NCBI GenBank assembly: GCA_001642005.1
Contig: LWCA01000061.1
Location: forward strand, 1 to 64,000
DNA length: 64,000 nucleotides
Source: Intoshia linei
Lineage: Eukaryota > Animalia > Orthonectida
Reading direction: 5' to 3'
Below the pieces are notes generated by a model. That model saw nothing but the letters and a program-made list of their open reading frames with translations. It made no database searches and was not told where the DNA came from. The number at the start of each line of letters is the position of its first letter. Position 1 is the stretch's first letter. Shown in pieces: positions 7,816 to 42,500 of this stretch. The translations under genes and the position numbers were made by a program.

Positions 7816-10800
7816 ATGGACCAAGATAATTCAGAATTAATTTCTAATAATGGTTCATTTTCTAAGGAATTATCTACCCATGACAGCACTTGTCTCGATA
7901 TAAATGAAAATGACGAAAAATTCCATTTGCTTTCCAATTCAAATATTAAACAGCCTTCATTTAAAAATAGACTGATACGTGCTTACAAAAAATTAATCAT
8001 TATCAGCTCTGAACTGACATTTTTCTTATTCAAAGTTGCATCTTCCATGTATGATCCAACCGTTCGCCTATCTGCTTATGACAAGGTTTGCGTGTATGAT
8101 TTTAATATTGATAGGGATATTTGCAATTCTCATGTCACCAATCATTTTTCAAATTCCTTCAAAAAGGTTCTCAATCGCGATGTTCAAAAATTGGCAGCAT
8201 GGCATAATTTTATTTATCGCATGCTGGTTAATTTACCAGCCATTGTTATATCCTTGTTTACTGGACCATGGAGCGATAAGGTAAATTTAAATTCATTGTA
8301 AAGTTAAAATTTAGCTGAATGCATGTATGGTTCCTGGTATAGTGCAGTGATTCCTAACCTATGGGTATTTACCCACGAGTGGGTAATTTGATATTTTTCA
8401 AAGGAAATAAACAAAATTAGTTTTTAAAAAATGGGAATTTTTTTATTTTTTTTCCGTCGCATGCAATGACGTATTATATAGTAGTCATATAATAAATGAA
8501 TATCGCTACGTACATATAACATTGAATATCTTTGTGTGTTACAGTTCATTTATAAAATTACCAGTCGTAAAATTTAATAAAAGTCAATATCTAATGCAGA
8601 TTTTCGCAGGTATCATGAATGGCAACCTCAAAAAAGTGCATTTTCATAATAAAAACTCCAGATTATCCTTTTATTAAAAAATAAAAATAGTTATAGAATT
8701 TTTTAAAAAAATTACAGTTGATACAGTTATATCTAGTTAACACACGCAAAAAACTTGAATCTGAAAAAGTGACGCCTTCACGACCAAAAAAGCACTTTAT
8801 TATTAATTTTTTTATCTGGAAACTATTTTATTATCAAAAAAGTCATATTTTGATTATACGTGACAAAAAATAATAAATGGTTTTTATCTTATCTTAAGCC
8901 GATATGTTCCAGAAAGTTAAAAATACAGATTCAAAGTAACATAATAATGGCATATTTTGAGCTCTGAGCAATTCTGCTAATAAGCTGATTCAATTGATCC
9001 TGAAAAATGTCTTTAATTCGACTACATACTGTATCATTTAAGAGAGGTATTTTCCTTAAATTTTCACCGGATTTCATATCATACAATGCATTTTTTTTCA
9101 TAATTATTAAAGTTGAAGGTAAAATCAATTTTCACCAATAGTAAAAAGCATGTTTTCTTTTGCAATAAGATATTTCATCAAATATTTTTCATCAAGTAAA
9201 ACGTGTTTTTTTAAATAATAAAATTTTGATTAACTATTACACGGTGTAACAAAATGAAACTTTTTTTGAAGATTTTAAAAAATATGAAATAATTAACGGT
9301 CCGAAAATTAAAAAAAGAAGATTATTCTGATAGAGCTTATTCGAGTTGTTATAAATACAAAATTTCAACCCCAGAAATTGACGTATTTCCGGTGAAAAAT
9401 AATTTTTAATTTATTATCAACCAATATTTTTTAAATATTTCGATTAAAATAAAAATTGAAAATGTAAATTTGATCCTACAATTTTAAAAATAAAGTGTAT
9501 TGAACGTTACAAATTTCCAATAAAGAAATATACACCGCAGATGTTATTTTTATTGCATTTCTCATGCATGGTGTAATCATTCAGCGAGCTAGGGGAGCAG
9601 TGCCTGCAACGAAATGATATAGTTAATATCGAATTATCTGATTATGCCTCTTTAAAATACATTATTAACATGACAAAAGAGTCATTTATTATTAATGTAA
9701 CGAATTTAATATAAATGAGGATTAATAAGACCAGTAGCAGATCTAGGTGGGTGCAGGGGTGGCCGCCCCCTGGCGTTACAAATGTGGAAAATAAGTATTT
9801 TAATTTGTGTAATAACATTGTGAAAAATTAACAAATTTTTCTAGTACCCATTATTTAGACTGACCATATTTTTGTCGTACTAAAAGTAGTACTTTTATTG
9901 CTTATAAACAAAATATGTTTTTGATTAATTTTTGATTAGAAAAATTAACATTTAAGTTAAAGTTCAATTAATAAGTTTATTTAGTTGTGAAAAGTACGTC
10001 GAAAGTACGATTTTGGAACAATGAAAAATGTCGTACTTCTGGTCGCACTACATTATTTACGTTTTATGTATATAAGGATAATTTATCATTAATCTAATTA
10101 TCAATTTAAATATATTATAATATGTATGCTTTTGGCACACTAATAATTATAATTTTTTTTAGGGGACTTTAAAAAAATATATTACTAAAAAGGGGCGGTA
10201 GACAAAATTGAGTTTGTGAACCCCTGCTTTAAATCATTAAGACATTTTACATGCAATCTCCTAGTTTGAATATTAATATATAATGTTTTTAAATTTAGAT
10301 TGGACGACAAATACCTCTAATGGGCAGTATAACTGGACATATATTAGCAATGCTCGTGTTCATAATTTCACTATTTGCCAAATCATATTATATGGTATTT
10401 TTTTCTTTGGCAAGTTTTATAATTGGAATATCAGGACGATCTTCAATAACGACATTTTCAGTATATAGTCACGTTTCCGATAATACATCCGTCAACACTC
10501 GAACATTTCGAATTGGAATGCTGTCTGGGTGTGGTTACATGGGACTATGCATTGGATCTCTTTTAGTAGCATTATTATCTCCTTACATTGCCGTCTATTA
10601 TATACTTGCCATTGTTATATTTTTTTTAATACTATGTTTGCTAACGGTATCGTTTTTTCTGGTACCATATGTCGGAGAAAATGATACACGGATAGAAATG
10701 AAACAATATGACGCTCTAAATGAAAATAAAGATGATTTCGAAAAGAAGTTAAATGTTTTAACAAAAGGAGAAAGTAGTAACGAACAGTTTTATTATGCCT

Positions 10801-11522
10801 GGTGGAATTTTAAAAAGAGAGTAAAAGAAAAACCAGATCAAGATACAAAAATTTCTGAAAATTGTAAAAGAACCGCAACCAGTGTAATGACACTTTTCAA
10901 AAAACGTGAAAACTATCAACGGCTTTATCTCAACTTTTTGATCATTTTTGTTTTTTTACATCAAGCCTCAAAAGCATATCATATTGATGCATTGTTAATG
11001 ATTACTAAAAGCGAACCTTTTTTCTTTACTACGGCCCAATTTGGATACCTATTATGTATCACTTATATAATATTTGGGTTGGGTGCTCTTGTTTTGACAC
11101 CATTATTTACAAAAGTATTAATGTTAAATGATGTGGTATTGCTTAGTTTTGGTTGTATGGCTAATTTTGTACGATTTTTGTGTTTGACTCTTTCAAAAGA
11201 AGTTTGGATGATTTACGCCAGTGAGTGTATCATTGGTGGGTCCCTAGTAATTGCAGCCTTAAAATCAATTTTGTCTAAACAAATTTCCGCGTCTGAATAT
11301 GGATCAATATTTAGTATTGTAAGTGCAATGGAAACTGTGGGAAACCTGATGGGTTCAGTTATTTTTGCAACCATATACACTCTGATGCTCAAAAACGACA
11401 TTTTGATTACACTGTGTTTTACATTCGAAATTTGTAGCTACTTTTTTATTCTCACCACCTCACTTACATTGCATTTTTTAATCAAATACAAAACAAAAAT
11501 TAATAAACAATGTAATATTTAA
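7816..11522 (+). CDS. SLC46 / proton-coupled folate transporter-like MFS transporter; exons 7816-8280 and 10299-11522 (562 aa)
   Basis: Phase-0 splice rebuilds MFS motif A (GPWSDK|IGRQIP); Cys pair in first loop (DKVC...DIC); VSDNT..RTFR; KSILSK...EYGSIFSI; about 12 hydrophobic segments. Confidence 0.9.
8931..9180 (-). mobile_element. hAT (Buster/Charlie, ZBED5-like) transposase fragment in the SLC46 intron
   Basis: Frameshifted peptide TIGE/LILP...KIPLLNDTVCSRIKDI; hAT-like terminus CAGTGATTCCTAACC at ~8346. Confidence 0.8.
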
Positions 11523-13799: not shown

Positions 13800-14590
13800 T
13801 ATTAGTATTTTCGAAAAATGTGCAAATGTGAAATTGCAGGATGAATATTTACTTTTTCATTTGAATCCAAAATTGGTTGATAATATATTAAAAATTATTT
13901 TTCACCAGGAATGCATAGATTTCTGGGCTTGAAATTTTGTATTTATATCAAATAGAATAAGCTCTATCAGAATAATCTTTTTTTTAATTTTTGGATGGTT
14001 AATTATTTCATATTTTTTGTTTTAATAAAATATTTTTTTGACCGTGAAGGCGTCACTATTCAGATTGAAATCTTTTTGTGTATTAACAGGATACAACTGT
14101 ACCATCTGTAATTTTCTTAAAATTCTATGGCTGTTTTCATTTTAAAAAAAATGGTAATCTGGGGTTTATATTGTGAAAATTATCTTTTTGAAGTTTCCAT
14201 TTATGATAATGTTGATGATTTTAAAAACTATCCCAGAATTTAAGTTGTATAAAATTCTAGGACTTTTTTAATTTTTACAAAAAAGGTAATTTGATGTTGT
14301 GGCCGTAAAGGTATAAGATTTTGAGATTGAAAATAATCTTATTGTTGATAATTTTTAAATCTGATAAGAGTTAAAAAATTTTTGATTTTTAGGACGGGTT
14401 TGAAAAAAAGGACAATTAAAGTTTTTGACTTGGACTCAATTTATGAAAATAAAATTTACGATAAAACAACACTCTCGGAAAACTATCATAGAAATATGGA
14501 ATTTTTAAAACGAGACTCCTCTTATTTTCTTAAATAAACTTGAGCAAACAGACCGACAGACAAATAAATGTACAGTTTTATAATAACTAA
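13800..14590 (-). repeat. Helitron family copy (minus strand, 3'-truncated)
   Basis: Reverse complement of the core of 18854-20008. Confidence 0.75.
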
Positions 14591-14917: not shown

Positions 14918-17900
14918 TCATACATTTTTGAACTTTAGAATGGGTTTTACATCAGATAAATTAAAAAATTCATTAATTTGAGGTTCCTGTTCAATTTGAT
15001 TTTGTTTGTTTTTATAGACAATAGAATTGGGTTCACTAAAACGACAATAAGGAGAAACGTCGAAATTTTGAGGTAAATCAGTATTGGGAGACGATTTGTG
15101 TGACAATTCATCATTTGAAGAAAACGTTGAGGCTCTTTGAGAAGAATCGGAATTTCCATTCCATTTATAAAATTTTTCAATGCAACATTTAGCATTTTCA
15201 GAATAATTTCCATCGAAAAATTTTTCAGTTTGAAAATTTTCAGGAAAAGAAATTTCATTTGGAATCATTTGGTTGACATTGGAAATAATATTATAAGATT
15301 GACGAATTTGATTAGGTGGGTTTGGTAAATTTTGATTAATATTAGTGGAATATTGACAAGATGGTGGTATATTTTTAATTCCATTGTGCGGTGGATCATT
15401 TTCACGTGGATAGTTTTGATTACCATTTACAGTGTAATTTCCAAATGAATTGTCGACATTGACAGAATTTGGTTGGTTAAATGTCCATAAATTGAAAGAA
15501 TTTTGGCAATTAGGGACAATTTCCGGGTTAAAATTATTATTATTAAATTTAAAAGGTGGAACTTGATTTGAAAACTGGTTATGTACTTTGTTTATGGGAA
15601 TTTCTTTAAACTGACCGGTATTATAATTTGGGTTTGTTTGATATGGGTAATATCTTTTCAAAGAATACTGATAATTGATTTCCATTTTTTCAAAATTGGA
15701 CATGGAAGGATATTTCATTTGATTAAAATTTTGATTTCGATAATTACAATTGGAGTATTCATAATTTTGATTATTTGTATTAACTTTGTATAGGGGTCTC
15801 GTAGGGTCTAATGTGTATCCTTGAAAATATTGCGCATCTTTTACAGGATGAGAATAAATGGAAGGATTTACAGTTTGAGGGTTGTAGGAATCGGGATAAA
15901 CTGAATGTTTTATATCCAAATCAGCATTTGGCATTGTAGGAGTATGTTTAAAATTTAAAAGTTTATCTTGAACGACTTGACGCAGTTTACTTCTTTCCGG
16001 TTTGAATTTTTTTTTTAATTTTAAATTTGTTTTTTTCATCTGATTGGATTTGGTGCACTTTTTATTTTTTACTTTTACATCAACAGGTTCAACTTGAAAG
16101 GTTACGTAAATGTTGGATTCAAGATTACGTTTATATTTTTCAATGTCTCTATTACAAATGAAAATGAAAATAAAATTTTCAATTTCGAATACACATTCTT
16201 TGCAATTTCGTATTGTGGCCAGATCCAATGGAGTTTGATTATAAACATTACGAAGAGATAAATCAGCGCCTTTGTTTAGAAGAAGTTTCAAACAGGTTGT
16301 ATTATTACACATTGCTGCAAAATGCAATGGTGTTTGTCTTTTATTATTGGCAACAGACACATTGGTAAATTTCGTGAGGATAAGGTTTAAAATACTAGCA
16401 TCTCCAGATATACTAGCCCAATGAATGGGTAAAGAATGATTCATGGTATCAGGTATATTCAAGTCACAATTTGCGTCAAATAAAAGTTGAAATGTTGGAT
16501 AAAATTTTAATCTACTGGCTAAATTAATAGGGGTCAATCCACCTTGGCATTTCAAATTGGTTTTTACAGAAGCTTCCAACAAAACGGCAACAGTTTTCGC
16601 TGATAAGTAATAAACTGCCGTATGTAACGGCGTGTAACCTTCATTATCCAAAATATTTACATCGGATTTATATTTTATCAGCACTTTAATGGTTTCAACG
16701 TCCATACATGATGCTGCAATATGCAATGCTGTTTCACCACTTGTACAAGGATAATTAATGTCGTTCATGGATTGCTGAATGGTACATTCAATTTGCCCAT
16801 TTATTAAACTGACGCATTCGTGTTTCATAGACATTACTTGTTTGGTTAAAATCAATTCCATTAACTTAGTTTGATTTGACCTAAGGACATTTGAAGGTAA
16901 TTTTTTAATCTCGGGAATTATTTTTACGGGATAATTTCCATCGTCTTTATTCGGTATGGATAAATATGCACCATTATCAAGAGGCCTCAAAAGTTTGTCT
17001 AAATTGAGCAAATTTCTAGGGTTTTTAGTGGCGCTATGACCTGATGGATAATATGTCAAATTTAAAAGTCGTTTTCTAATTACGACTAGCAATATAAACA
17101 ACGATACTACCAAAATATTGACTGCCACAATAATACTATAACTATAATCACTTTTATTCAAATCTACAGTTTCTACATCGTAAATTTTTCCCTCGTGAGG
17201 TAAACCACTGACACGTTTTGCCACAGCAGAAAGCAAAAAATTTTCAGCTTCTTGTTCAGATTCTATAAAAGTAGATGCATTGGCATTATTAAATATACGA
17301 TGTACAATATTACAACATTTCTGTTTGGAAGATGGGCACATGGTGTCTTGTACCTCTTCCAAGAGAATAGAATTTACATGAAAAAGTTTTTTTAAATTTG
17401 CAGTAACATCATACATATCAATTTCCATTAATTGACATTCTATGAAAAACAAAATTGACAATTTAATGTCAATCTTTACATCTTTAGCAACATTTCCGCA
17501 GTCAAAACCATCAAAATTACAAACACTTGAATTGCAGTCATCATCGCAGTAATTATTTTTAAATTTCAAATGACAATTGGACGAAGAACAATGCTGCCAA
17601 GCTTTTTTATAAAAGTTTGTAGAAATGGCTTCACATTTGTATCCATTTACATAATTTATGCAAATTTTTTGTGAACCACAAATATTTTTATCACAATGAT
17701 TTATAACAATATGGCATTGTTTCCCAGTAAAACCTATGGGACAATCACAATAAAATTTCCCAGCATTTTCAATACACTTTCCACCATTAAAACACATTTC
17801 GCAAGATACATGTTGACACATTTCACCAGCGTAGAAATGGCTACAAATACACATTGGAGTCACTTTAGAATTTTCCACCTTCATTAAACATTTACCATTC

Positions 17901-20900
17901 AAGCATTTTTTAAAACAAGAACCTCCACTTTTGAATTCACAGTTAAGTCCATAAAATTCATTTACACATTCACAAATATAACCCAATTTGTTACTTGATC
18001 GATGACATTTTCCTTCATTTGAACAATTGTTACAATTTAGATTTACATTTTCACAAAGTTTACCGGAAAATCCATCGATGCATTTACACGTAAAATTTTT
18101 GTCAGGTAGTTCAATGCAATTTGAATTATTTAGACATGGACTATTTTCGTAACAAATATGTTTTTTCGCCAAGTCACAGTATAAACCTGTAAAAGTTGGC
18201 AAACATTTACATGTATAATTTGGTCGTTTTTCAGAATTCAGTTGACAATATTTATTACCGTCGCAATTTGAATAGTTGCAAATTTTTGAAGCATGGAATT
18301 GGCAATTTTTCCCAAAATAGTTTGATTCGCATTTACAAATATAATCACCGTTTGATATTGACGTGCATTTTGAGTTGTTATGACAGGGTTTTTCATAACA
18401 TTTACTCTCGATTATTTCACAAATTTTACCTAAAAATTCATTAGATATAAATAATTAGTAATAAAAAAATCAAAGTAACACTAAAAAAAAAAATTTTCGA
18501 CATTTCCCCAAAAATTAAATAAACTTTACGGTAGTAATACATACATTAAAAAAATTAAAGATTCTACAGTGTGAAAACCATACAAGTTGAAAATGCTTGT
18601 CTTGCATCATAAAAATGAAATGTCTATAGAAAAAGTTTGACACAAGTAAAAAACTGAAAATTAGTGAATCGCATAGAAAAACTTGTAAATCCATTAATTT
18701 TAGAAGAATTTTATTATTAGCTTATCTAATCTGAAAAATAAAATTTTAGTCATGAATGTATGGATTTCTCAGGCTGACATTTTTGTTTTACATCAACTGA
18801 AATAGACTATCAAAATAATCTTCTTTTTTTTAAATTCTAGGACCATTAGATAATCCTTACTTATATAAAGTAAAATGGTTAAAAATGTATGTCTGTTTAT
18901 TTATTTGTTAAAAAAGTAAAGGGAGTCGAGTTTTACAAATTCCATATTCTTATAACAGTTTTTCCAGAGTGATCTTTTATCAAAAATTTCAATTTCAGAA
19001 ATTAAGGTTAAAAACCACATTCTCCTTCGTTTTTAAATTCAAATATCTTCAATAATTATAAAAAATATACATTCTAATAAAAACTTTTAAATTCATCCAT
19101 ACTATGATAATTACAATTTTATGATATCTTCACGGCTAAAACCACAAATTACCCTTTTTTGTAAAAATTAAGAAAGTCTTAGAATTTTATACAACACAAA
19201 TTCTGGGATTGTTTTTAAATTCATAAAAATTATCATAAATATTAACCACAAAAAAATATCTTTCTCAGTCAAAAACCCAGATTACACTTTTTTTTAAAAA
19301 TGCAAACAACCCTAGAATTTAAAAAAAATAAAAGATGATACAGTTATATCCAGTTAATACACTCAAAATATTTCAATCTGATCAAGTGGCGCCTTCATGG
19401 TCAAAAAAGCACTTTAATATTCATTTTTTCAATTCGAAACTATTTTATTAAAACAAAAAATTTGAAATAATTAACGGTCCGAAAATTAAAAAAAAGATTA
19501 TTCTGATAGAGCGTACTCCAGTTGATATAAATACAAAATTTCAACCCAGAAATCTACGCATTCCCAGTGAAAAATAATTTTTAATATATTATCAACCATC
19601 TCTTTCAAATATTGGATTAAAATTAAAAATGAAAAGTAAATAATCATCCTACAATTTCAAAAAAAAATGCCCATTGAATGTCTACCCATTTCCAATACAG
19701 AAACATGGGGGGAAATCTATATAATTGATTTCTTCGAATTTGTTACGCAATTCCTATTTCTCAAATACAAATTTTAAAAAAATTTTAGTCTAAAACTACA
19801 ACGAAGTAGAACTAAAAGTAAAACTTTTTTATTATCATTTTAATATTTATTACTAATAAATTATTAGTAATAAATAAATAATGAATGCTTTGCAATGTTG
19901 ATAATATTATCTGAAATATGTATCTAAATTGCAAAATTTCTCAGATAATAAAAACGTGCCCTCTGCAAGCTAGGTGCTGTTGGTACGTAGTACATAACAG
20001 TCCACTAGTTATTTAATATTATAATAATTCATTTTATCACAATACTAAAATGTAATAGTAATTATTCTAATTAATACTTATAAATCAATAAATAGTATAG
20101 TGCATATTTGATCATAAAGTATAATTATTACCGGTCGTTCCTTCTGGACAAGTGCATTCAAAATCGCCAATTAAAGACTTGCAACCTCCATTGTGTAAAC
20201 AAGGATTATTTTCACAATAATCGTAAAATTTTTGACAATATATACCAACATATCCATCATTACATACACACTTTGGATTTGATTTCTTTACAACGCAGTA
20301 CCTAATTTTTTTTTAAATATTAATAAATTAAATCTGACCACCAAACCACGACTCGCGATTTTTTTTTAAAATGATAAAATTCAAAAAAATGTAATATTTA
20401 CAGGTTGAGTTGGTTACTTGGTAAGTTGAAATTACTGGTGATACATATATTTATGTACTACTAAATTCTCAAAATGTTACCCATTGATGCATTTATAATT
20501 TTGACAAAAATTAGTGTGATATTCGCAATTTTCTCCATAATTATCTAAATTGTTCATAAATAAATTCAATTGAATATGTTAAATGTACCATCAACACATT
20601 GGCACATATATCCTTTGGTATTATTGTGATGCAAACAATGCCCACCAAATTGGCAAGGTTTAAGACTACATGGGTCCGTATAAATATCACAAAATTTTCC
20701 AGAATAATCTAAAAATAATAAGATTAAATATAAGTTTAAATTACTGAAATCGCAGTCACATTTATAACCACTGACTCCGTCACGCAGACCAATACACAAT
20801 GAATGACTGCTACATAAATTCTTTTTAAGACAAGGATCATTGTAATTATTGCATGTTTCTCCGGTATAATCTAAAAATACATTGTTATATTATGAAAAAG

Positions 20901-23900
20901 AGTTTTAAGAATATATTAGTTAGACCAGTGGCGGATCTAGGATTTTCAGCGAGGGGGGCTAAATTCATATATTGTATTTAAATTGAAATTTTATATTATG
21001 TATATTAAATATTTCTATCTATAATAATAATTTATATTTTTTTTCAAATTTTTATTCTATTAAATTTTTCAATGTTGACCATTCAACTGTTGAGTTGTTC
21101 AACTGCATACAAATCGACATTTGAGGCAGGTTGTCTTTCGATTATGAACAACGTTAAGACCGATAATTTAACTTAAACTGATGTTACTAACATAAAAAAT
21201 AAGACATAGATTAATGATTATATACATAAAACGTAAACGATTGGTCCTAGAAATTTTTTTTAATTTTTCACAATGATAATACACAAATTAAAATATTTTA
21301 GAGCACATTTGTCACGCCAGGGGGCGGTCTTCCCTGCACACACCTAGATCCGCTACTAAGTTAAACATGTTAAATAATATAGTGCAACCACGTCAAACGA
21401 TCAACTATTTAAAAATTGGAACGGCTACCCACGAATTTTACATGTAATCCTTACTTGTAAAATATACTACGCGATTTTTGTTTGTGTGTGTGTTCCACTT
21501 TATTTAAATAACTACCCGTCTTAGAATTTTATAAAGTCCACATTTCAATTACAGTTTTTTCCGGGAGTGTTCGAAAAATAAATTTCAACTTCGAAACTCA
21601 CATCTTACGGGTCAAAAACCCCAATTGTCTTTTTTTTGAAAATCAAACGAGTTGAAGAATTTAAAAAAATATATACGCTGATACGGACTTTAAAATCATA
21701 AACATTATCATAATTTTAAATTTAAAAAAATTATATTGTCAGGGCCAAAACCACAAATTACCCTTTTTTTATGAAAAAAAGGCCTAGAATTTAAAAAAAT
21801 TTACAGGTGGTACAATTGCATCCTGTTAACACACAAAAAAATTTCACTCCGAATAAGTGACGACTTCACGGTCAAAAATCATTTTAGTATTCATATATTA
21901 TTTCCAAAATATTTTATTTAAACAAAAAATGTAAAATAATTAACGGTCCGAAAATTAAATAAAAAGATTATTCTGATAGATCTTATTCCAGTTGGTATAA
22001 ATACAAAATTTCAATTTTAGGAATCTACGCATTCCCGGTGAAAAATAATTTTTAATATATTATCAATTAATATTTTTCAAATATTTCGATNAAAAAATGT
22101 AAAATAATTAACGGTCCGAAAATTAAATAAAAAGATTATTCTGATAGATCTTATTCCAGTTGATATAAACACAAAATTTCAATCCAGAAATCTAAGCATT
22201 GCCAGTGAAAAATCATTTTTAATATATTATCAACCAATATTTTAATGTAAATCGATTAAAATCAAAAATTGAAAATGTAAATATTAATCCTACAATTTAA
22301 AAAAAGTGCATTGAACGTCTACACATTTCCAATAAAGAATATAGGTGAAAATCTATATAATTCATTTCATTACTACGCTATTTTAAATTTCAAAAACCTT
22401 ATTTTCAAAACACTTTTAATAAAATTTAAATAGAAACTACAACAGTGGTTCCTAACCGGGGTGCACAGAGCTATTTTCAATTTTTTTTCTAAATGAGTCA
22501 AATTAATTAACTGATATTTTTATTATAAACATAAAGATTAGATATAAGACATAATTTCATCTTGTAAGTTCTATTTTGGTAATGGGGAATTTATAATAAA
22601 AAATGGAACACAATGTATTAATTCTTTCGAGATGAATAATCAGCCTGAAATTTTGTAGTAGTGATGCGAATCATCAAGGATTTGAATTTGACATACAGCG
22701 TAGAAGCCACATGTTAGGTAATGAAAAACTTTTATTTTTGCTGAAATTGAAGTTATTTATGAAAATTTTCAGGATTGTATTGTTTTACTTTATTTGTAAC
22801 ATTATAAACTCATTCTCTTAACACATTAAGAACATGACATCATAAAATTGTTTTTAAAGGTACACAAATAAAAATAAAATTAAGTGGGATTAATTCACTT
22901 TAAATTAAAATGTAATGTGACACGATGGGTTCCTGGTAAAACAAGATTGAAAACCACTCCTTGAAATATTGGTAATAGTGCAAGTAACACATTTTGGTAA
23001 AATTAAAAAAGTTAGCCCTCAGCAGAGCTAACTGTCGTTTCCACAAAGTACATAACAGCCAAGCTCGTATAATTATATAAAAATAAAAAACAACCTATTG
23101 TGCATTCACAGTAATATGTGTCTTTTACATGATGGCATACACCCTGATTTTCACAAGGATTTGACCAACAAGCATTAGATAATAACAAACAACTAAAGCC
23201 TTCAAATCCCGGTTGACAATCACAAACATAACCTCCCAAAATATCCCTACACGTACCTCCATTAAAACACAAAGGATTTTCGGTAGGATGATCTAAATGA
23301 GACGTGAATTTAAATTACTAAGTTATTTACGATGTATACATTCAGGGTAGTCAATATCGCAAAGATCTCCCATAAAACCCATTGGACAATTACACTGTGC
23401 ATCTCCAGTTGCAAAATTAACAACACAGGTGGAGTTTCCGTAACATTTGTTGTCAAAATAACATTTATCTTTAAGTTCGCATTTTGAACCTAAAATAAAA
23501 AATTAGGAATCATTAAAACATTTTAATTTAATACCAGTCGACCCTTTAGGACAAAAACAATAATAATGGTTATTTTTTAAATAACAATCTCCTCCATTGC
23601 AGTACTCTGAATCGCATTCTTCATACTTTTTATCGCAAATGTCCCCATAATACTTTAATTCACAGTTACAATAAAAACCACCATGAACATTGACGCATTG
23701 TCCATGTTGACAAATATTTGTATCACATTCATCAATGTCAGTTTGGCAAAATAAACCTATAAATCAATTATATATTGAACTAATAAAAATATATACCAGT
23801 AAACCCCTCATCGCAATGACAGCTGTAAGAATTGTTTATTGGAACGCATAAAGAATCATTTTCACATTCATTGTTTTCGCAATAATTAATTTTCTTTTCA

Positions 23901-26900
23901 CAGTCAGCACCTGTGTACCCTAAACATATATAGGTATTACGATAATATCAACCTTCTAAGCAGACACATTTGTATGTATAATTTCCTGTCACAATACATT
24001 CTATAGCGTGCAAACACTTGTGCGATACACATGGCTTCATTGATAATTCACACGTTTTCCCGTGCCATTGAGGTGGACATTCGCATCTAAATTAAAAATA
24101 ATGGTTAGGAAAATTATCAAATTACTCAAAATCTGCCAATAAATTTCTACATTTTCCATTGTGAAAACAGGGGTTCAGTTCGCATTCATTTAAATCATCC
24201 AGACAGCGTGGACCCGTCCATCCATCTTTACAATGACAAATAAACATGTCAAATGATATTTGTTCACATTTCCCATTTCTTTCACAAGGGTTAGGATTAC
24301 ACAATGACGACATTTCACAATATGAACCTATTCAAATATTTTTAAGAGTGAGATATAGATACCATGGAATGGATAATTGCAGAGACATGTACCATCTTCA
24401 CAAACACCGTCGTTCATACATAGACAATTGGATTCTTTTGGTTTGTAACAGTCTAAATTTTTAATTAATGTGAAAAAAATTTCTAGATGCAAATTTTGGT
24501 TGAAATTAAGTTAACTCGACGTATTTAGCGATTTTACTAATTTATGATATTATAGATTTTTAAGATAATTGTGGTTAAAATTTGGTAGGGTTTTAAGGAA
24601 AGTTTTTTAAGCCAATTTTTAAATATGTTGAAAAAATTTTGCGACCAAATTAGTAGGGTTTTTAAGAGAACATTTGTTTTACTCAATTTTTAAAGATAAT
24701 TATTGTCTAAATTTTGGTAGAGTTTTTAAGGGAACATTTTTTATCACTCAATGTGTAAAGATTTTGAAGATTTCTTAAAATGTAAAAATATTCCCTTAAA
24801 ATCTTACAAAATTATAGTCCAAAAATTAAAGTCACTATATTACTATTTTATCAAATTTTCTTAATATTGCCTAGTATTTTCACTTTAATGGTCCGTTGTG
24901 AAAAAATGTGGGAACCCCTGAGTTATGATATTCAAGAATTTAAGAAATTTTGAAAAATTTCAAAGAAATGAATTATATCGATTTTCACCCATATTTCTTT
25001 ATTGGAAATGTGTAGACATGTTCAATGCACAATTCAATTTTTTCAAATTCTCCAACTCGTATGATTTTAAAAAAAAGGAAAATTGGAGTTTTTAACCCAT
25101 AAGATGTGAGTTTGGGAGGTTGAAATTGATTTCGCTAACACCCCTGGAAAAAAAACTGTAATTGAAATGTGGACTTTATAAAATTCTAAAATTGGTAGTT
25201 ATTGAAATAAACGGTAGCACATACATAAATAAATATTGCAAAGGATATAAATACATTATATTAACAATAATAATATGTAAATAGTAAATCCCAAAAGTAT
25301 TTATCAAAGAATGGAAAATGTAAAACTTAATATACAATTTAATTTATATATATACAATTGTACAATGTAAGACACTAATTTTAATTATATAAACATTAAG
25401 TTATTCCAAACCCAAATTTTTGAACAAAGCTCAAAATTTGGCTGAAGCGCAGCGAAGAGTATTATGTAATTTCGCTGAAGGAAAAAAAAATTTTTGGGGG
25501 TCTCTTTTTCAAAAAATAATAACAGTTTACATACAATTTTTATTGCAATCTTCAAAATGAATGCTTTAAATTTTTCATAACAAATAGCACATTTCAAAAT
25601 GACTTCATGATGAATACTTTAAAAAAAAAAACAAATGACACAACACAAAAGACAAGATCAAAATCAATTATTTTCGACAATTATATTTTTGTTGAGTTTT
25701 GGCCATATTAATAAGGTTATTTTGAGCAGGCTGTTTTAAGTAGTTCATAAAGTCTTTGCATTCCATGTTAAAGTTGATTCTTATACTTATTTCTGCTTTC
25801 ACTAAACTTATTCTCATTTTATTTCGATCTTTTCTCCACACAGATTCCATAATTGAAAAAATTCGTTTCACAAAAGCATTGTTTACTGGAATTGACAAAA
25901 TTATTTTTTAGAAGCTATTTTTTTAATTTCTGAAATATTACATGAAAAAAATTATAGAATATAAATAAAATATGTCTGATCTGATGATTTTGATTGAAAT
26001 AATTACATTACCCTGAGTAATATCACTTAACCCTGAACCCTGAGTTGAATTTGAAAACCCGAATTCTCAGGTAGAAAATAACGCAGTTGGCAACCATGTG
26101 AGTAACCCAAAAGTGGATGAGATTCTACAGTTCCTAATTCTTTCTAATACCCGTAACGGCAACACATAAAATAGTCCATACAATCATATTAATTCCATTA
26201 CATTTCATAAATCATATCCTTTTAAGGGTAATATATAAATCACAAGGACTTGCAATAAAACCTACTTTGATTCTATACAAAAACATTTCTCCCTACAATT
26301 AGTCGGCAAATGCAGAAATAAAATATACGTTACAATTTAAATTTTAAAACATACAAATGTCTTGTCAACTTGTGTAAATTTCCATGAAATAATAAATGTA
26401 TAAATCAATATAAGTACCATCTTTATCGCATGTACAATTTATGGAAACGGTGTAATCTTTGATGATGGGATTACATATAGCACCATCGATGCATTTATTA
26501 TCTTTATTATAACAAGGATTTACATATTGGCATAAATTTCCGATATAATAATCATTGTTGCATCTAAAAATAAGATTTATTAGAAAATACAAATTATTTG
26601 CAAAAGATGATGTGGACAATGTAATTATTAAAGCGAAATAAGTATCATGAGAAAATGAGTAATAAGAGCCTGATATTAAAATTAAAGTTACAAAGTTATA
26701 AACATTTGTAAATAACCAATTATGAACCAATTTTATGATTTTCACATACATATAAAAATGTAACTGAAACATGAAAAGTTACTAATTTTACAATGCAATT
26801 GTTTTACAATAGTTAATAATTATACGTTTTTTGTCAATTTTTTTTCAGTAATTTTATAAATGTTAAAATACGGTTCTATAAAATTATCTAAAATTACTGG

Positions 26901-27133
26901 CATTGAACTTTGCTCAATACGACATTAACCGAATCATGCAAGCAAGGCAATCGATAGGGTATATCTTCAAATATTGAACGTTTATTTAATTTATGGTGTA
27001 TTGAAGTATAATTTGAATTGGTTTCATTGATATAGGTAATATTGTCAGGTTTAAAATTTACATATCCTGAAATTGGACTTGAGAAGGAATATAATTTGAA
27101 TATGTACAGAAACAGAAATATAAACAATTTCAT
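14918..27133 (-). CDS. NOTCH: Notch receptor, 14 exons: 27133-26898, 26563-26418, 24452-24363, 24327-24126, 24086-23953, 23919-23797, 23756-23535, 23489-23331, 23292-23095, 20870-20745, 20708-20589, 20544-20481, 20301-20132, 18429-14918 (about 1833 aa)
   Basis: Signal peptide, about 23 EGF repeats, LNR (CDDDCNSSVCNFDGFDC), NOD/NODP-like HD, TM helix + RKR, 6-7 ankyrin repeats (GETALH, GYTPLH, QTPLH), basic NLS, N/Q-rich tail. All introns GT-AG with consistent phases; total 5502 nt. Confidence 0.95.
18854..20008 (+). mobile_element. Complete non-autonomous Helitron (5' subfamily B), 1155 bp, in the last Notch intron
   Basis: A|TCCTTACTTATATAAAG ... hairpin CTGTTGGTAC-GTA-GTACATAACAG, CTAG|T. 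Confidence 0.88.
20926..21358. mobile_element. hAT-type MITE
   Basis: TIRs CAGTGGCGGATCTAGG / CCTAGATCCGCTACTA; 8-bp TSD AGTTAGAC/AGTTAAAC. Confidence 0.85.
21448..23067 (+). mobile_element. Non-autonomous Helitron (subfamily A) in a Notch intron
   Basis: A|TCCTTACTT 5' end; degenerate 3' hairpin and CTCG|T end; assembly N at 22091. Confidence 0.8.
24960..25250 (-). repeat. Internally deleted Helitron fragment
   Basis: Reverse complement of subfamily A 5' region joined to the core end. Confidence 0.65.
25400..26098 (-). mobile_element. hAT (Blackjack-like) deletion derivative with C-terminal dimerisation-domain fragment
   Basis: Terminus CATGGTTGCCAACTGCG; peptide SIPVNNAFVKRIFSIM..W..DRN; related copy in opposite orientation at 41438-41810. 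Confidence 0.8.
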
Positions 27134-28095: not shown

Positions 28096-30582
28096 ATGAA
28101 TATTGCAAATAATATTCTAATAAAAAAGTGTAAATGTATCTACATTACTCAATTGTATAAATCCTATTCAAAATTTGAAAATATACACAAAAAAAATTCC
28201 ATTCAATTAACTGCTTTGCAACAACATCTTTTGTCAATTACATCTTCTTATATGTGTCTTTTTCACCCTGAAAGAGGAGGTAATATTTTGACTTTCTCTT
28301 TACATATTATAAAACGTATACGTGTTTAAGAACGGCATTACAAATTATAAGAAATTAAATCAGCAGAAATTTAATTTCATACCAAATGTACCAATGTATT
28401 ACGAAAAAAGTAATCCTCTTAAAATCTACCGTTTTGAGGAAAATTTTTGCGTGAGATACCCCGCCTTTTGTGGCACTGTGATAAAATTACGGCCCAAACC
28501 GGGGTCAGATTGTATAGTTATTGTGCCGGAAAAAATACGGGAAAATATTTTTAACTACTGAAATAAAAAATTTTCATTTTCGAAAAAAAGATAATTTATT
28601 TGAAATACATGTATTTGCGTTAATTATCCTTACTTACAGTATATACAATTATAATCCTTGCGTATGTTAATGGTTGAAAATGCATGTCTGTTTATTTGTT
28701 TGTTCCAGTTGATTTGAGACAGTAAGGGGAGTCGAGTTTTACAAATTCCATATTCTTATAACAGTGTTTCCAGAGTGATGTTTTATCGCAAATTTCAATT
28801 TTAGAAATTAAGGTTAAAAACCACATTCTCCTTCGTTTTTAAATTCAAACCCGTACAATAATTATAAAAAATATACATTCTAAGGAAAAGTTTCAAATTC
28901 ATCAATATTATGATAATTTCAATTTTATGATATCTTCACGGCTAAAACCACAAATTATTCCTTTTTGTAAAAATTAAGAAAGTCATATAATTTTATACAA
29001 CATAAATTCTGGGATGGTTTTTAAATCCATAAGTATTATCATAAATGGTAATTTTCACGGTGAAAAACCTAGATTACCATTTTTTTAAAAAATGAAAACA
29101 GCCCTAGAATTTAAAAAAAATTACAGATGAGTTATATCCAGTTAACACACCAAAAATTTGAATCTGATAAAGTGATGCTTTCATGGTCAAAAAACCAGTT
29201 TAGTATTCATTTTTTTTTTATTGAAGAAACTATTTTATTAAAATAAAAATTGAAAAATTAACGGTCGTATAATAATAAAAAAAAATTATTCTGATACAGC
29301 TTATTCCAGTTGATATAAATACAAAGTTCAACTCTAGAAATCTACGCATTTCTGGTGAAAATTAATTTTTAATATATTATCAACCAGTATTTTTCAAATC
29401 TAACATTATGTAAAATTTAAAAGGTAAATTCATCCTACAATTTTTAAAAAAATTGGAATTTACTGTGTATCAATTTTAAATACAGAAATATGGATTTCAA
29501 TCCCATCAATTTATTACTTCTGTTTTTATATCATTGCTATGTAATTTCTCATTTTCAAAAACTTAGTTTATAATCAAATGAAGTATAACTTTGTTATTAT
29601 CATACAGATGTATTGAGATTTATATTATTTTAACAGTCCATGGGCAATCAAATTTGGGAAGCACTCCTTTAAAAGAGTGGCAATGGTGAATAGGAGCATA
29701 TTTATTTAAGATTTTATTTTTTGGGTAGAATTAAAAAAGTCCCCCTCGGCAGAGCTACATACTGTTTGTACGATGTACATTACAGTCTAGCTTGTAGTAT
29801 ATAAAATAATGGGTTGTAAGTAATTGATAACTTAGATATGGTTGCCACATTTGGTGAAGTATCTGCATCTTGCTTTGTACAAAACCTGCACTCAAAAATG
29901 CTTAAAAATAAAATTGGTTGTAAAATTTTAAGGTTAACTCTCAAACTAGTTACCTCATTTTTTCAATCTTTAGAGAAAAGCCAATTTTGTCAACTAAATA
30001 TTTAAATATTGAATATGAAAAATTACGTTGTCTACCGAAAGACACATTCGGATACGTTTACTACCAGTTTATGAAATCTAATGTAATGGATAGATACAGT
30101 ACTTTTATATTTTGTGCTTAATTATCCATAATGTTAAAATGGTTGTAGAATATAAATATGGACGACCGACCACCAATTCAGTTTGTTAATGACGTTGAAT
30201 TGGCTTACGTTATGCTTAGATATCGACAAATCCATGATTTTATACACACATTAACTAATCAACCTACTAATTTAATTGGCGAAATTACAGTAAAAATAAT
30301 TGAAGCATATCAAACTAAATTACCAATGTGTGTATTAGGATCCATTTTTGCTCCGCTGCGATTAAAAAACAAGTAACTTGTATCAAATTTAAAATATAAT
30401 TTAGACATTTTCATTTTTTTTTAAAGCACAATTTGTACTGGGCAATAAAGACTGCTGCAATGTCTCCACTATTCATCAACGTATATTACGAGAAAGAATG
30501 GAATACACCTATTAATGAATTACGTGACAGATTAAAAATTTACAATATACCAAATACACCAATGAAAAAATTGTATAAATAA
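28096..30582 (+). CDS. COQ4: Ubiquinone biosynthesis protein COQ4; exons 28096-28279, 29836-29932, 29974-30082, 30149-30372, 30405-30582 (263 aa)
   Basis: HPERG|DMVATFGE, LPKDTFG..Y, DDRPPIQFV, RYRQIHDFIHTL (HDxxH metal motif), GEITVK..E..QT.LPM, NVYYEKEW; phases consistent. Confidence 0.96.
28322..28561 (+). mobile_element. Probable Gypsy pol fragment (segment preceding the integrase zinc finger) in COQ4 intron 1
   Basis: Ends in IVPEKIRENIFNY, resembling the xVPxxxRxxIxxxxH lead-in of Gypsy integrases. Confidence 0.45.
28627..29794 (+). mobile_element. Non-autonomous Helitron (subfamily B) in COQ4 intron 1
   Basis: A|TCCTTACTT 5' end; 3' hairpin CTGTTTGTAC-GAT-GTACATTACAG; CTTG|T end. Confidence 0.82.
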
Positions 30583-36500: not shown

Positions 36501-39500
36501 GCTCAAATTGTTCAATGATTGCTACAGGTCTAATATTCATATTTTTTATGATAGTAGAAATTAAATGAATTCTAGTGCTCATATTTTCGTTCATATTTTT
36601 TTTTAGTACTTCATTTGAAATGACAGAGTTTATCTAAACATTATACAATTTAAAAATATAGTATAAAATATAATATATGAAGTTCAAACATTTTATTATA
36701 ATTATTAAAAAAATAAATAAAATCAATTCAACTCTTCAACAAATATTCAAATTCGAATAGTAGACTTGCAAATACAAGAAAAATTAAAAATAATATTTAA
36801 CCATCAATTTTAATTTCACACAACATCTAAGATCTTTTAATCATTATTCATGATATATAAAATTACTTTCGAAAAGAATAATCAATTTACCCTTTTTTTT
36901 AAAACTGCCTCACCGCTGCATGATCCTAAATATTTCTTACATTCTGCTCGACATGAAACCTAAATACATGTATCAATAAATGTATATATAATAAAAAGGA
37001 TATAATAATATTTACTGTTAATTTAATTTAATTAATATCTTAGTATGATAGTTAGCGGTGTCAACTGTCATAAATTACGACAATAATTAATAGAACAAAA
37101 CATTCGAAAGCTGTCTAAAGTAATTGTAATGATCTATAACAACAAATATCATGTATCGTTATCCAACAACTAGAATTAATATCTTGTTAACATTAACGAT
37201 CTAACTTAATATCTTTACAACAAACTTAACATATTAATTATTAGTAATAATTATTAGCCATTTGAATAGAAAAATTTGAGGAATTTTATTTACTCCTAAA
37301 TATGAATACAAAAACAGATGAACACATCAAAGTGACATTAGTTAAACATTTGATAGATATAAAAGCAGAAGATCTGATAAAAATAACTGGTGTAAAAGAC
37401 AATTATACGTCTATAAAATAATTGTCTTTAAAATGAAAAAAAATCCTCTCTTGGAACGTATCAAGTTAAGGCGAACTTATCGAAATGATAACGAAACATT
37501 ATTTGACTTTATATGCAGACTTAGAAATAAGAAAAAATGATAGCCACTGGTCTAGATTTAATCGATCAATACAGTAAAGAAAAATTACTTATTATTTAGA
37601 GAATATATTTACCTCGACTAAATTGATGTGTAGACTAAAACAATTATGCTACAACGCTACTGTACGATTACGATTATGTACGATTAGAGAAAACAGAATA
37701 GTAAGTTAATATACATTAATATTAAGAAAACAGAAGTGTAAACGTAAATACTCTGAACATGATATGAAGTCTGATATGGGTATCGGTGTGATATTAAGAC
37801 AAAAAGACAGTGATAGCCTATGCAAGTAAAAAATTGACTGATAGCCAACACCGTTACAGTGTGATGCAGAAAGAATTATATGCCATATTCTGGGCGGTTA
37901 TGAAATATAAGTAGTATTTATTTGTAAAACAATTTACAATAATAACAGACCATAATCATCCACTCGTTAATATCAGGTTGTCAAAAAATATAAAAAATTG
38001 CGTATTCGGATGGTTGCAAGTATTAGCAGAATTTAAATTTGTTATACAGTACAGACCGGGAAAAGAAAATGTAGCAGATGATGCCCTATCACGACTACCC
38101 ACAGTAAAACAATTAATCCTTCAAAGCGATATGTTTAATGTAAAAAATGCCAAGCAGAAGATCCAGCATACATTGAATTATTCAATTGCCTTACAAAAAA
38201 CACAAAATTATCAAAAATAAATCCATATTTTAAATATCAGCGAAATATTTCTGTAGAAGAAAAAGTACTCAAATTTGAGCGTGGGCTACTAGGTAAATTA
38301 CCTTTAATTCCTGAAACACTGATTAATTTAATCATTAAATTTTATCATGAATCACCTTTATATGCACACCCAGGTGCAACTAAACTCAGTAAAATTATTC
38401 ATAAACTCTATTTTTTCCCAAAATTATACAAAAAAATATCAGAATTTATAAAAAATTGCTCTTTATGCCAGACATCCAAATATTAAAACCACAGAAAAAA
38501 ATTACCCTTAAATCCCGTTGTTTGTTCTAAGTTTAACGAATTCTATCAAATTGATATAATGGGTCCCTTGTCTATAAGTACTCACGGTAATAAATATATT
38601 ATTTCGATGATAGATCATTTTACTGCGTGGCCAGAAATGGTTGCAGTTTCTAATATTTCTGCTTAAACAGTTTGCAATGCTATATGGCAACAAATTATTT
38701 CACGCTACGGACCACCTACAAAAATCCCAACTGACCAAGGTACTCAATTTACCGGATCACTAATGGAACAGTTATCTAGTATATTTAACATTTTACACAT
38801 TCTGTAAACCTTATGTACATCAACAAATAGGTTCCGTAGAAAGACTCCACAGAACGTGTAGAAAAAAACTAAGGATCCTATGTCAAGATAAAGTAGATAA
38901 ATCGGATATACATCTCGATTCTGTATTGGCTAGCCTACGCTTTACACCCGCATCTAAATCAGGTGTATCTCCACTTAATTTTGGTTTACGGCATTAATGC
39001 CAGCATTAGGACATTCTCAAACCCGTTTAAAGGAGTTAACAGCTAATGCAAAAATTCATATAAAAAGTATATTAAGCGTATGAAAAGTTATCACGACAAC
39101 TCTATCAATCGAAATTATTCTCATGATTTACTATATGAACCCAATGTTCCAATTTTATCAAAAGATAATCCATATAGACAAAATTGTAAGGAAAAAAGGA
39201 AGTGTAGTTCGATCACCTCATTATTTAGTTCCATTTATTCAGCGAAATCAACATGAATCAGTGATTAAAAGTATGATCGAGCAAAATATAATAGAACCTA
39301 GTCAAAGTTCTTATCGTTCGAGCTGTTTCTTTGTCAATAAAAAGGATGGACATAAACGTTTAGTGCAAGATTATCGTAAACTTAATGATGCCACGATTCG
39401 TGATACATACCCACCACCTTCATTACGAAATTGTATAGATTTCCTTGCGGGTAACACTATCTTCTCAACATTGGACCTTACTAGTGGGTTTTATCAAATT

Positions 39501-42500
39501 CCATTACGTAAGGTCGATCGACCAAAAACGGCTTTTAGTTCAACATATGGGGCAAAGTTATACCAATTTGTTGTCATGCCTCAGGGTTTAGTAAATGCGC
39601 CAGTGTCTTGCCAACGTATAATGAACAGAGTTTTTTGTGGTATTTCCAATATTATATTGTATATGGACGATATCTGCAGCACAAAATGTATTTGAATTGA
39701 TAAAAACAAAAATTACTACTGCACCTATAATGTCACTTCCAATAGTTAATAAACCGTTCGTGTGAGAATGTGATGCGTCAGCATCTGGTATTGGAGCGGT
39801 ATTACTACAAGATAGACATCCTATTGAATATTTAAGCAAAAAATTTACAGATACCAAAATGAGATAATGTACAATTAATATGGAATTCTACGCAATGGTA
39901 TATAGTGTTGTCAAGTTTAAGCACTATTTATTAGGAATGCATTTTACTATAATTACGGATGATAATCCACTCGTTCATTTACGTGCCTCTAAAAATATTA
40001 CTGACAAACAATTTCGCATGATGTCTAAATTGGAGGAACTTGATTATAATATTATTTATAGGCCAGGTCGATTAAATTTTACGGCCGATTTTTTGTCGAG
40101 AAATTAAAAAATTAACCAAATTTCCTTTCACGATTTCTCAAATTCATTACATCAATCTCAGGATGATGATATTCAACACATAATAAACAAAGGCGTTAAT
40201 GATATTCCTCAATCAATTATTGTTAGTGAAAATATTTGTCATAAATAAATTCTTTTGTTGTGCAGCAGCTGTCACATTTTCATTGCATCGTAAAATATTT
40301 ATAGCTAATAAATTAGTCTTAGTACGAGAAAAAATGGTTAAAATCATCACCTCTGGTAGTTCTCGTTATATTTTTTACTGGGTAGTTCTAATATTAATAC
40401 TTTCTATCAAAACATTACAAGTATAGTAAAAAATACATAACACAACAGTAATGATAATTGCATTTTATTAACAGTAAGTTGTCAATATTCAACTAAAAAT
40501 CAGTCTTATAATTAACTACATTCTGCAGAGCTAGCTGATCTTTGTACAAAGTACATCACAGTCAAATTAGTGTATGTATAAAAACCTCTTCAGTAGAATT
40601 GTGATATAAATACGGAACCGAATCCGAAGTAGTCATATCCACTGAAATATGCTTGCTGACAATTGATCCATATGATCTAATAAATAAAATTATATTTTAA
40701 ATTTAAAAAATGTACGTGGCAGCAAGTTTTATTTGATTCAAATTTTCTTCTAAATCTTCATAATAATCATAATTTTCATTTTCAATTATTCTTAAGTATA
40801 ATTTTTTCATTTCATTGATAATATTTTTGTAACAATCGCGGCTGATAGAATAAGAAAATATCTCGCTTGAATCGCTTGAATCTGATTGTATTTTTTCTTC
40901 AAAATGTATAGATAATTTTTTACAATTTGGTAATTTTGATAGAATTAATTTAATTTTTTCTTCTCGGGATACTATAAAGATAATTAATAAATAATGACAA
41001 AACCAACAAATAACTAATTTCGTACAATACTGGTCTAAAAATTGCAAGTTTCAAATATTTACATTTAACAATCATTAAAAAAAATCACTTAACTCATTCC
41101 GGAATCCGGATAAACCATTAAGATTTAAGGAAAACTAACATTTTAGCATTCCACTGAGAAAAATAAAATGTCAAAAATTTGCGATTAGTTAGGGCTACCA
41201 TATTATAGTAGTACTAGCTTAGCTGGTTTGTACTTTGTACAAACAGCACCTAGCTCTGCCGAAAGCGAATATATCTAATGTTAGTATTAAAAATTAAATC
41301 TATTATGGTTCAAATCACTTTTATGAACCAATTAAAGTAAGGCTACAAAAATGTATTATCGTAGATCATAACTTCATATAATTCTACTGAAAATTTTCCT
41401 AAATGTATATCAGAATGAATACATTATGATGATTAATCAGGTTTGCCAACTGCGCTATTTTCCCCCTAACAGTTCGAGTTTTCAAATTCAACTTAGGGAT
41501 CAGGGTTAAGTAATATTTCACAGGGTAATTTAATTATTTCAATAAAAATCATCAGATCAGACATTTTATTTATATTCGATAATTTTTTTCTCTATGGTAA
41601 AAGACTCTTAGTGTTGGCAGTTAATTTTATTTTATTACTTAGAGACACCCATATTTTGTTTTTTTTCTCAAAAGTATTCATCATAAAGTCATTTTGAAAT
41701 GTGCTATATGTTATGAAAAATTTAAAGTATTCATTTTAAAATTTGCAATAAAAATTGTGTGTAAACTGTTATTTTTTGAAAAAGAGAGGATCCAAAAAAA
41801 ATTTATTTATTTATAAAAAATTTCAGAATTAAATTTAAAGGTTCAAAATGAACAACCAAACATGACGACCAACACAAGACCACTCAAAACATAACTACAG
41901 GATCTCATCGTAACATTCGAGTAAATAAAGTTATATTTTAGTTTTGTAGAACATTTTTGTATGAAATTTTTAAAATGGCAAGCTCTTCCACTAAAAATTT
42001 CCGAAAATTTTTCTTCTTTTCACGATTATCATAAAACTATCACACGCAACTTTATCAGTATTTGGACCTAATTTATAAAATTTTGATACACTCCTAATAT
42101 ACATGTATTATTTTCATGATCCATCAAATTTAAAAAATAATCTCAAATTTCATTTACATATTTCTTAAGATATCAAAAAAACAATTATTAATTGCTTTTA
42201 TTATTGTATTCCGTATCAACTCTATTGTTAAAAAAATTTTGTAAATTAAAAAAATATCGATTGTCTTTGTAACATATCACAACTAGGGTCACAATTAACA
42301 AAAAGTTAATCACATTTTAACCGTTTTATGGCACATTCTTAAATGTATTACAGACGATAACCATATAAACTAAATTAAATTTAAAATTATTTAAATTTTT
42401 ATTTTTATCATGTAAAATGTACATGTAATTTAGTGTAAATTTACACTAATTTTAACTTATATTTTATTTATTATGTATGTATTTTTATTTATTATTATTT

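Follow-up and report, generated by a model that had tools for sequence, protein, structure and literature searches.

The window analysed here, 64,000 nucleotides at the start of contig LWCA01000061.1 of the Intoshia linei (Orthonectida) assembly GCA_001642005.1, carries on its minus strand a receptor gene that encodes protein OAF71325.1, 1833 residues long and mislabelled 'Epidermal growth factor-related protein 1'. Part of this protein matches exactly the translation of a 1178-codon frame that runs from stop to stop (18454-14918, minus strand), and the reading frame is unbroken across all 1833 codons. The N-terminus is hydrophobic and, by inspection, fits a signal peptide; it is followed by 20 regular EGFs together with two atypical N-terminal units, then a half-EGF, one LNR, an HD-like segment, a membrane helix, the RAM position, ankyrin repeats and a low-complexity tail (Table 1). 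From residue 902 onwards, cysteines occur at 902, in the half-EGF (909, 914, 920, 929), in the LNR (944, 949, 958, 962, 967, 974) and in the HD region (995, 1028, 1035, 1036), and every module of the receptor has an even number of them.

Table 1. Features of the Intoshia linei receptor gene in the 64 kb window.
Feature	Position	Strand	Basis or remarks
Notch-type receptor gene	14918..27133	-	14 exons, 1833 aa; X3 contig reaches 27289 and 14880
Terminal exon 14, aa ~665-1833	14918..18428	-	last EGFs, half-EGF, LNR, HD, TM, whole intracellular part
Last complete six-cysteine EGF, aa 873-902	17714..17803	-	Pfam, sequence
Half-EGF, C909, C914, C920, C929 (C-x4-C-x5-C-x8-C)	17633..17713	-	23rd EGF-like unit, counting the two atypical N-terminal ones
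Linker, aa 930-943, with F936-Y937 (candidate plug) and W941 (LNR-B-type W)	17591..17632	-	sequence
Single LNR, aa 944-974, six cysteines, B-type or A/B hybrid	17498..17590	-	Pfam, profiles
Shortened HD-like segment, aa 975-1092, no S1 loop, no R-x-K/R-R, four cysteines	17144..17497	-	
Predicted S2 site, D1081-V1082	17174..17179	-	aligned with D-V of Notch3-type beta5; 11 residues before membrane helix
Transmembrane helix, aa 1093-1114, then RKR	17078..17143	-	
Degenerate RAM motif TYYP, aa 1122-1125, Tyr replacing conserved Trp	17045..17056	-	exact register with W-F-P
Ankyrin repeats, aa 1228-1410; first Notch repeat missing or unrecognisable	16190..16738	-	
Basic stretch and N/P/Q/Y-rich tail without (L/I)(T/S)PS degron	14921..16189	-	

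Elsewhere, the window holds a major facilitator superfamily transporter (7816-11522, plus strand; Pfam MFS_1), a Coq4 ubiquinone biosynthesis gene (29924-30582, plus strand; middle exon matched) and broken pieces of an LTR retrotransposon (37915-40250, plus strand), with integrase zinc-binding frames upstream of a reverse transcriptase frame. A dispersed high-copy repeat family occurs in both orientations in introns of the receptor gene and downstream of it (14000-14533, 18908-19732, 21462-22368, 24962-25248).

The first-pass annotation had placed a single LNR and a half-EGF within one uninterrupted exon, and this is what we find: both lie inside exon 14 and are contiguous in genomic DNA and in spliced contigs. 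The stretch encoding the negative regulatory region (NRR) is present in six sequencing runs from two studies, and region 16400-18400 is a single contig with neither indel nor joint in four of the four runs examined (one of which, X1, may be the source sample). X2, a DNA-like run, spans 15009-18819 in one piece and has the same variant letters as the spliced contigs. No run is recorded as RNA; splicing was recognised from contigs that skip predicted introns. The X3 contig skips all 13 predicted introns of the receptor gene, while those of X4 and X5 (second study) skip 12 of the 13, both ending before the first intron; none of the three has a joint within the NRR. As the skipped segments have CT..AC ends, these contigs are spliced forms, and the receptor is transcribed and spliced. 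Two variants fall within residues 903-1092, both synonymous and too few for a selection test.

Contiguity was read from assembled contigs, which drop rare variants, rather than from raw reads, so an assembly collapse or missed exon that conceals further LNRs has to be considered. One-piece contigs without an indel or joint in the NRR were nevertheless obtained from five of five runs (X1-X5), covering two studies, two haplotypes and both DNA and spliced forms, and a profile of 113 LNRs run over six frames of the 64 kb window gave only one match above 5 bits, with no second LNR. Concealment of this kind is exceedingly improbable and has been largely refuted. As a separate observation, X3, X4 and X5 each contain one extra contig that matches a short piece ending at 17401, in the HD alpha2 region, and then diverges from the window; its loose letters on the minus strand encode a faintly similar peptide, either a chance match or a paralogue.

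The two atypical N-terminal units (26897-27133 and 26419-26562, minus strand; both junctions present in the spliced X3 contig) comprise one with four cysteines (64, 78, 80, 90) and one with a short last loop (C124-x4-C129); a variant at 24396 gives D147Y. Motifs tied to glycosylation and calcium binding are rare in the 20 regular EGFs. The O-fucose motif occurs in two of them, compared with 162 of 343 in a Notch set (binomial tail 0.0005), the O-glucose motif in one, compared with 100 of 343 (0.009), and calcium-binding-type starts in two, compared with 149 of 343 (0.001), the repeats not being independent in any of these tests. Because O-fucose motifs and calcium-binding starts are scarce, DSL binding by the Intoshia receptor appears doubtful. 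When single repeats were mapped onto the EGFs that bind ligand in Notch, their order was not consistent; 12 of the 20 repeats were nearer to Crumbs and eight nearer to Notch, in comparison pools of unequal size.

Among 58 proteins with at least eight EGFs there were 19 four-cysteine EGF units, namely that of Intoshia, 16 in Crumbs and two in other Notch records. Of 17 Crumbs-like proteins inspected, 16 conserve the unit, with the same C-x4-C-x5-C-x8-C spacing, without C5 and C6 and straight after a full EGF, but ahead of a laminin-G domain, a domain that Pfam does not find in the Intoshia receptor. In all 16 Crumbs proteins (within P0129-P0208) it is located between the full EGF and laminin-G. 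The Intoshia half-EGF has a mean score of 31.5 against the Crumbs unit and 31.3 against 804 truncated ordinary EGFs, and, like an ordinary truncated EGF, scores best against full EGFs. Since the Intoshia and Crumbs units have no special likeness in score, we read their similarity as convergence. A Crumbs-Notch chimera was considered and rejected on the same scores. In the known EGF fold, C1-C3 and C2-C4 pairing would apply to the four remaining cysteines, and the half-EGF would most likely be a folded two-disulfide remnant serving as a spacer.

Pfam reports one LNR stretch (E 3.8e-8, 34.1 bits against a cut-off of 21.2) when given shorter queries. The whole-protein scan does not list it, which accounts for the missed annotation of this receptor. 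Subtype profiles built from 23 three-LNR proteins (three of 26 were dropped where the pattern missed one repeat) gave 40.1 bits for LNR-A, 40.5 for LNR-B and 25.5 for LNR-C; the first LNRs of mites, by comparison, score 54-69 on the B profile and 30-37 on the A profile. Features of LNR-B include the diagnostic tryptophan before the first cysteine (W941), a phenylalanine four residues after the second (F953; 23/23 in B, 1/23 in A) and an F-D-G-F-D-C end with F969 and F972 (the latter 11/23 in B and absent from A and C), while K952 is of A type (19/23 in A, 1/23 in B). LNR-B was the top global match in three of three comparators. Against solved NRRs, the start of the repeat aligns with LNR-B, and its end, together with the 40 residues that follow, gives a gap-free alignment to LNR-C and HD-N. 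The original assignment to LNR-B therefore survives in part: W941, F953 and F972 favour it and the low C score rules out LNR-C, but the A and B profiles tie and K952 points to A, leaving a repeat best described from its residues as LNR-B or an A/B hybrid. A chimera of LNR-B and LNR-C was rejected, the C profile scoring lowest and the C-terminal half being B-type.

It had also been proposed that the NF of the A/B linker was retained. That proposal falls, because NF occurs in only one of 23 A/B linkers (a vertebrate NOTCH1-type), most having L-G-hydrophobic, and so is no sign of retention. F936 does lie five residues ahead of W941, which is the position of the plug leucine in the common seven-residue linker. 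At its other end the LNR is joined to the HD at the usual LNR-C-to-HD spacing, as would be left by a clean one-repeat deletion. Separate loss of LNR-A and LNR-C is plausible, since each loss occurs alone elsewhere, in mites and in Gordionus respectively.

The statement that the LNR runs directly into an HD domain can be kept only for an HD-like segment, which does adjoin; its similarity to known HDs is weak and its name only partly confirmed. The Pfam search that reports one LNR gave no NOD or NODP match in the receptor at E ≤ 10. The HD alone scored 3.2 bits on a Notch HD profile in HMMER, not above shuffles (up to 8.6), and only its alpha3-beta5 part beat them (18.1 against a mean of 10.6 and a maximum of 16.1 in 60 shuffles). 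Global hhalign of the HD found no match, and HD-N taken with the LNR showed weak similarity to solved NRRs. Mean pLDDT was 36 for a single-sequence fold and 58.5 for a 40-sequence fold, in which alpha3, beta5 and the membrane helix reached 65-98 and the LNR was not folded. Searches with the predicted model gave no Foldseek match at E ≤ 0.001 and a best VIA-align Z of 3.3; ESM Atlas returned matches below 0.9 or none.

Alignments show the S1 loop to be deleted, and no R-x-K/R-R furin motif occurs anywhere in the Intoshia protein. The distance from LNR to RAM, 148 residues, is the shortest among 39 proteins (156-250 in the others), and the four HD cysteines compare with two in 42 of 45 others. 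For the middle of the HD, the MAFFT alignment retains the usual HD disulfide as C1028-C1035 and lacks beta2 as well as the S1 loop, whereas HMMER keeps beta2, puts C1028-C1036 in a loop and reads NIVHRIFN as beta4. The HD of Notch has a SEA-like topology. The HMMER register fits this and would place C995 beside C1035 or C1036, stapling the two halves; the 40-sequence model, of low confidence, draws NIVHRIFN as a helix and not as the strand that this disulfide proposal needs. The D-V of NOTCH3 beta5 has been named as the S2 site (10.1101/2025.09.28.678708), and D1081-V1082, 11 residues before a single helix with the basic stop RKR, is predicted to occupy the corresponding position.

Beyond the membrane, W-x-P is found in 79 of 81 proteins spanning the RAM motif, Intoshia being one of the two exceptions in a set whose search profile favours W-bearing matches; the P-x-G frame of the motif is kept. 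One study regards W-x-P as critical for binding to CSL (PMC12166595), and another attributes most of the CSL binding to RAM (PMC3415683). Two adjacent variants at 17057-17059 produce L1121P immediately before TYYP, X1 having the letters of the window and X2-X5 the others. One ankyrin stretch aligns with the NOTCH1 ankyrins across ~190 residues, and ANK1 was not recognised in the Intoshia receptor. The ankyrin domain scores 160.8 on a generic ankyrin profile against 113.9 on a Notch profile, the generic set consisting of Intoshia's own best matches and thus being biased. The Intoshia tail has no (L/I)(T/S)PS degron motif, which was found in P0126 (fish Notch3) and P0130 (Brevipalpus obovatus). 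The losses of the S1 loop, the RAM tryptophan, ANK1 and the degron motif, not noted in the first-pass annotation, alter how the receptor's function is read.

To place the receptor among its relatives, we searched with a profile built from three sequences over the HD, the membrane helix and RAM; of 1.84 billion proteins, 149 matched at E ≤ 0.001. LNRs were counted in 31 proteins, drawn from these 149 and three earlier Notch matches, whose last EGF was within reach of the first LNR: 22 had three, eight had two and one, that of Intoshia, had one, a uniqueness that holds within these 31 proteins, as the sample misses strongly diverged receptors. Two-LNR receptors without LNR-A come from Brevipalpus obovatus (two genes, P0130 and P0251) and a Dermatophagoides/Euroglyphus dust-mite cluster (P0379), and one without LNR-C from the horsehair worm Gordionus (Nematomorpha; P0342); one record, from a sturgeon and flagged as unverified, probably reflects a model error, and three further records also have two. 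The acariform mite proteins P0130, P0251 and P0379, and their look-alikes P0250 and P0355, lack both LNR-A and the gatekeeper linker; the two Brevipalpus genes have neighbouring numbers. In P0318 and P0339 a two-cysteine remnant stands where LNR-A would be and the plug linker is kept.

Canonical Notch (NRRs of NOTCH1-3, PDB 3eto, 2oo4 and 4zlp; fish Notch3 P0124 and P0126) has the same order of EGF, LNR, HD, TM, RAM and ankyrins as the Intoshia receptor. LNR-C and HD-N of NOTCH1/2 align without gaps over 69-77 residues with the Intoshia LNR and the first half of its HD, and NOTCH3 shares D-V at the S2 position. Unlike canonical Notch, Intoshia has one LNR, a half-EGF, four HD cysteines, tyrosine for the RAM tryptophan and few O-glycan motifs, and lacks the S1 loop, furin motif, ANK1 and degron motif. 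Acariform mite Notch is similar in being without LNR-A, in an NRR that begins at the LNR-B tryptophan and in a short beta2-beta4 loop—and P0130 also in having no furin motif—but keeps LNR-C, a two-cysteine HD, the W-x-P of RAM and a complete last EGF. In Gordionus P0342, as in Intoshia, LNR-C is missing and LNR-B leads into the HD, but LNR-A, an L-G-L plug and W-F-P are kept and a long linker replaces LNR-C.

In the available texts, Notch is defined by three LNRs (PMC8166818) and LNRs are described as conserved across animals (10.1101/2025.09.30.679519), while reduced Notch ectodomains are reported from early-branching animals and myxozoans and a Notch without LNR from a ctenophore (PMC12166595); the domain figure of the last study may hold single-LNR cases. 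Judged by domain order and by the register from LNR through HD and TM to RAM, the Intoshia receptor appears to be Notch-derived; its membership of canonical Notch is not established, because it lacks the full set of three LNRs, W-x-P and the degron. A word-based search with the NRR for a second orthonectid Notch returned the Intoshia protein alone, and wider searches gave mostly ankyrins and Crumbs, which is not evidence of absence. Our literature search, which covered neither the Intoshia genome paper nor most subscription journals, so that a prior remark is possible, found no match for a 'single LNR' Notch; the papers on Intoshia that were checked mention Notch in their references only, and the reviews and surveys searched do not mention Intoshia.

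We tentatively prefer, with a little less than even confidence, a reading in which the Intoshia receptor would be a leaky, low-threshold and still ligand-responsive switch with weak CSL/nuclear output. Its HD would stay one uncleaved chain and serve as the principal lock. New disulfides would probably stiffen it: C995, where beta1 ends, would pair with C1035 or C1036, where the neighbouring strand starts, and C1028 would close a loop. One LNR with F936-Y937 would shield S2 only in part; modest pulling or trafficking would then allow ADAM10 to cut near D1081-V1082 and gamma-secretase to free the tail. Loss of the RAM tryptophan and of ANK1 would make the released tail a weak binder of CSL, and weak output would offset the leak.

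This HD-based lock, its low threshold and weak output are suggested by the RAM-CSL results given above and by published simulation and fly work. In simulation, it was LNR-A and the A/B linker that resisted pulling most strongly (PMC3145759). In fly Notch the S1 cut is not needed, and HD-core mutations are not activating, which the authors link to the absent S1 cut; mutants of the gatekeeper (A/B), the LNR-C/HD interface and the HD disulfide are constitutive in fly cells, with a raised basal signal (PMC13436963). A Drosophila FSHR-Notch chimera without the three LNRs, weakly constitutive in the wing and still answering ligand, is a precedent for a leaky, ligand-responsive lock based on the HD, albeit an engineered one, unlike Intoshia; in the Table 1 legend of that fly screen a receptor 'lacking the LNR' appears among the uncleaved, which contradicts the text of the study (10.1101/2024.07.10.602225). 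The NRR of C. elegans LIN-12 is a precedent for a low force threshold, but has three LNRs, unlike Intoshia. Reduced locks should be viable, since mites keep Notch genes without LNR-A. Against the preferred reading, the HD is barely recognisable by sequence, its middle fits two registers, DSL binding is doubtful, and the ankyrins score higher on the (biased) generic profile than on that of Notch.

Input, lock and output are all eroded together, with O-glycan and calcium motifs scarce and the RAM tryptophan, ANK1 and degron lost. This pattern, along with ankyrins that have drifted to generic and the critical role described for W-x-P in CSL binding (PMC12166595), would suit a receptor outside canonical signalling, whose lock decayed as CSL output no longer mattered and which was kept for adhesion or as a CSL-independent ankyrin scaffold. 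We regard this as somewhat unlikely: the exact six-cysteine LNR, the D-V in S2 register, the 11-residue stalk, RKR and the P-x-G frame are kept, which exceeds what adhesion needs, and a co-evolved CSL could accept tyrosine. A CSL co-evolved to a tryptophan-less RAM also belongs to a bolder proposal, in our judgement an unlikely one, that Intoshia would have the smallest natural force switch, in which a half-EGF and one LNR sit on an HD that is a single chain stapled by disulfides.

The lock might instead have been rebuilt: the half-EGF and F936-Y937 would stand in for LNR-A and for the plug, and together with the additional disulfides they would give a normal force threshold. Half-EGF and LNR do form two small disulfide modules ahead of the HD, F936 is in plug register, cysteine counts are even per module, and conservation of the four-cysteine EGF in Crumbs indicates that such a module can be stable. 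What makes a rebuilt lock quite improbable is that the half-EGF resembles an ordinary truncated EGF, that mites without LNR-A have no half-EGF module and that, without LNR-C, the LNR must move or hang on a 13-residue linker. Constitutive, ligand-independent cleavage, with control through expression, trafficking or turnover, would agree with the absence of both LNR-A and LNR-C, with the scarcity of ligand-binding glycan motifs and with the fly gatekeeper and LNR-C/HD interface mutants, which are not further inducible (PMC13436963). We hold it to be very doubtful, because the LNR-less fly receptor remains ligand-responsive (10.1101/2024.07.10.602225). In addition, 22 EGF units and an intact LNR would be hard to explain without a role for ligand.

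A lock of three LNRs is regarded as an invariable element of Notch, and mutations in it drive T-cell leukaemia. Were the receptor to lie outside CSL signalling, it would be a case of decay and of less interest; were the smallest-switch proposal true, a working bilaterian Notch pathway could dispense with two LNRs out of three, with the furin loop and with W-x-P. Intoshia, a tiny marine parasite, offers a natural test of how small a lock can be and displays the erosion of a receptor in an extremely simplified parasite. With mites lacking LNR-A and a horsehair worm lacking LNR-C, its single LNR makes up a natural deletion series. Placed in chimera assays that already exist, its NRR can help to show what determines the force threshold, part by part. 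It could also point to a more compact design for the core of synthetic Notch receptors.
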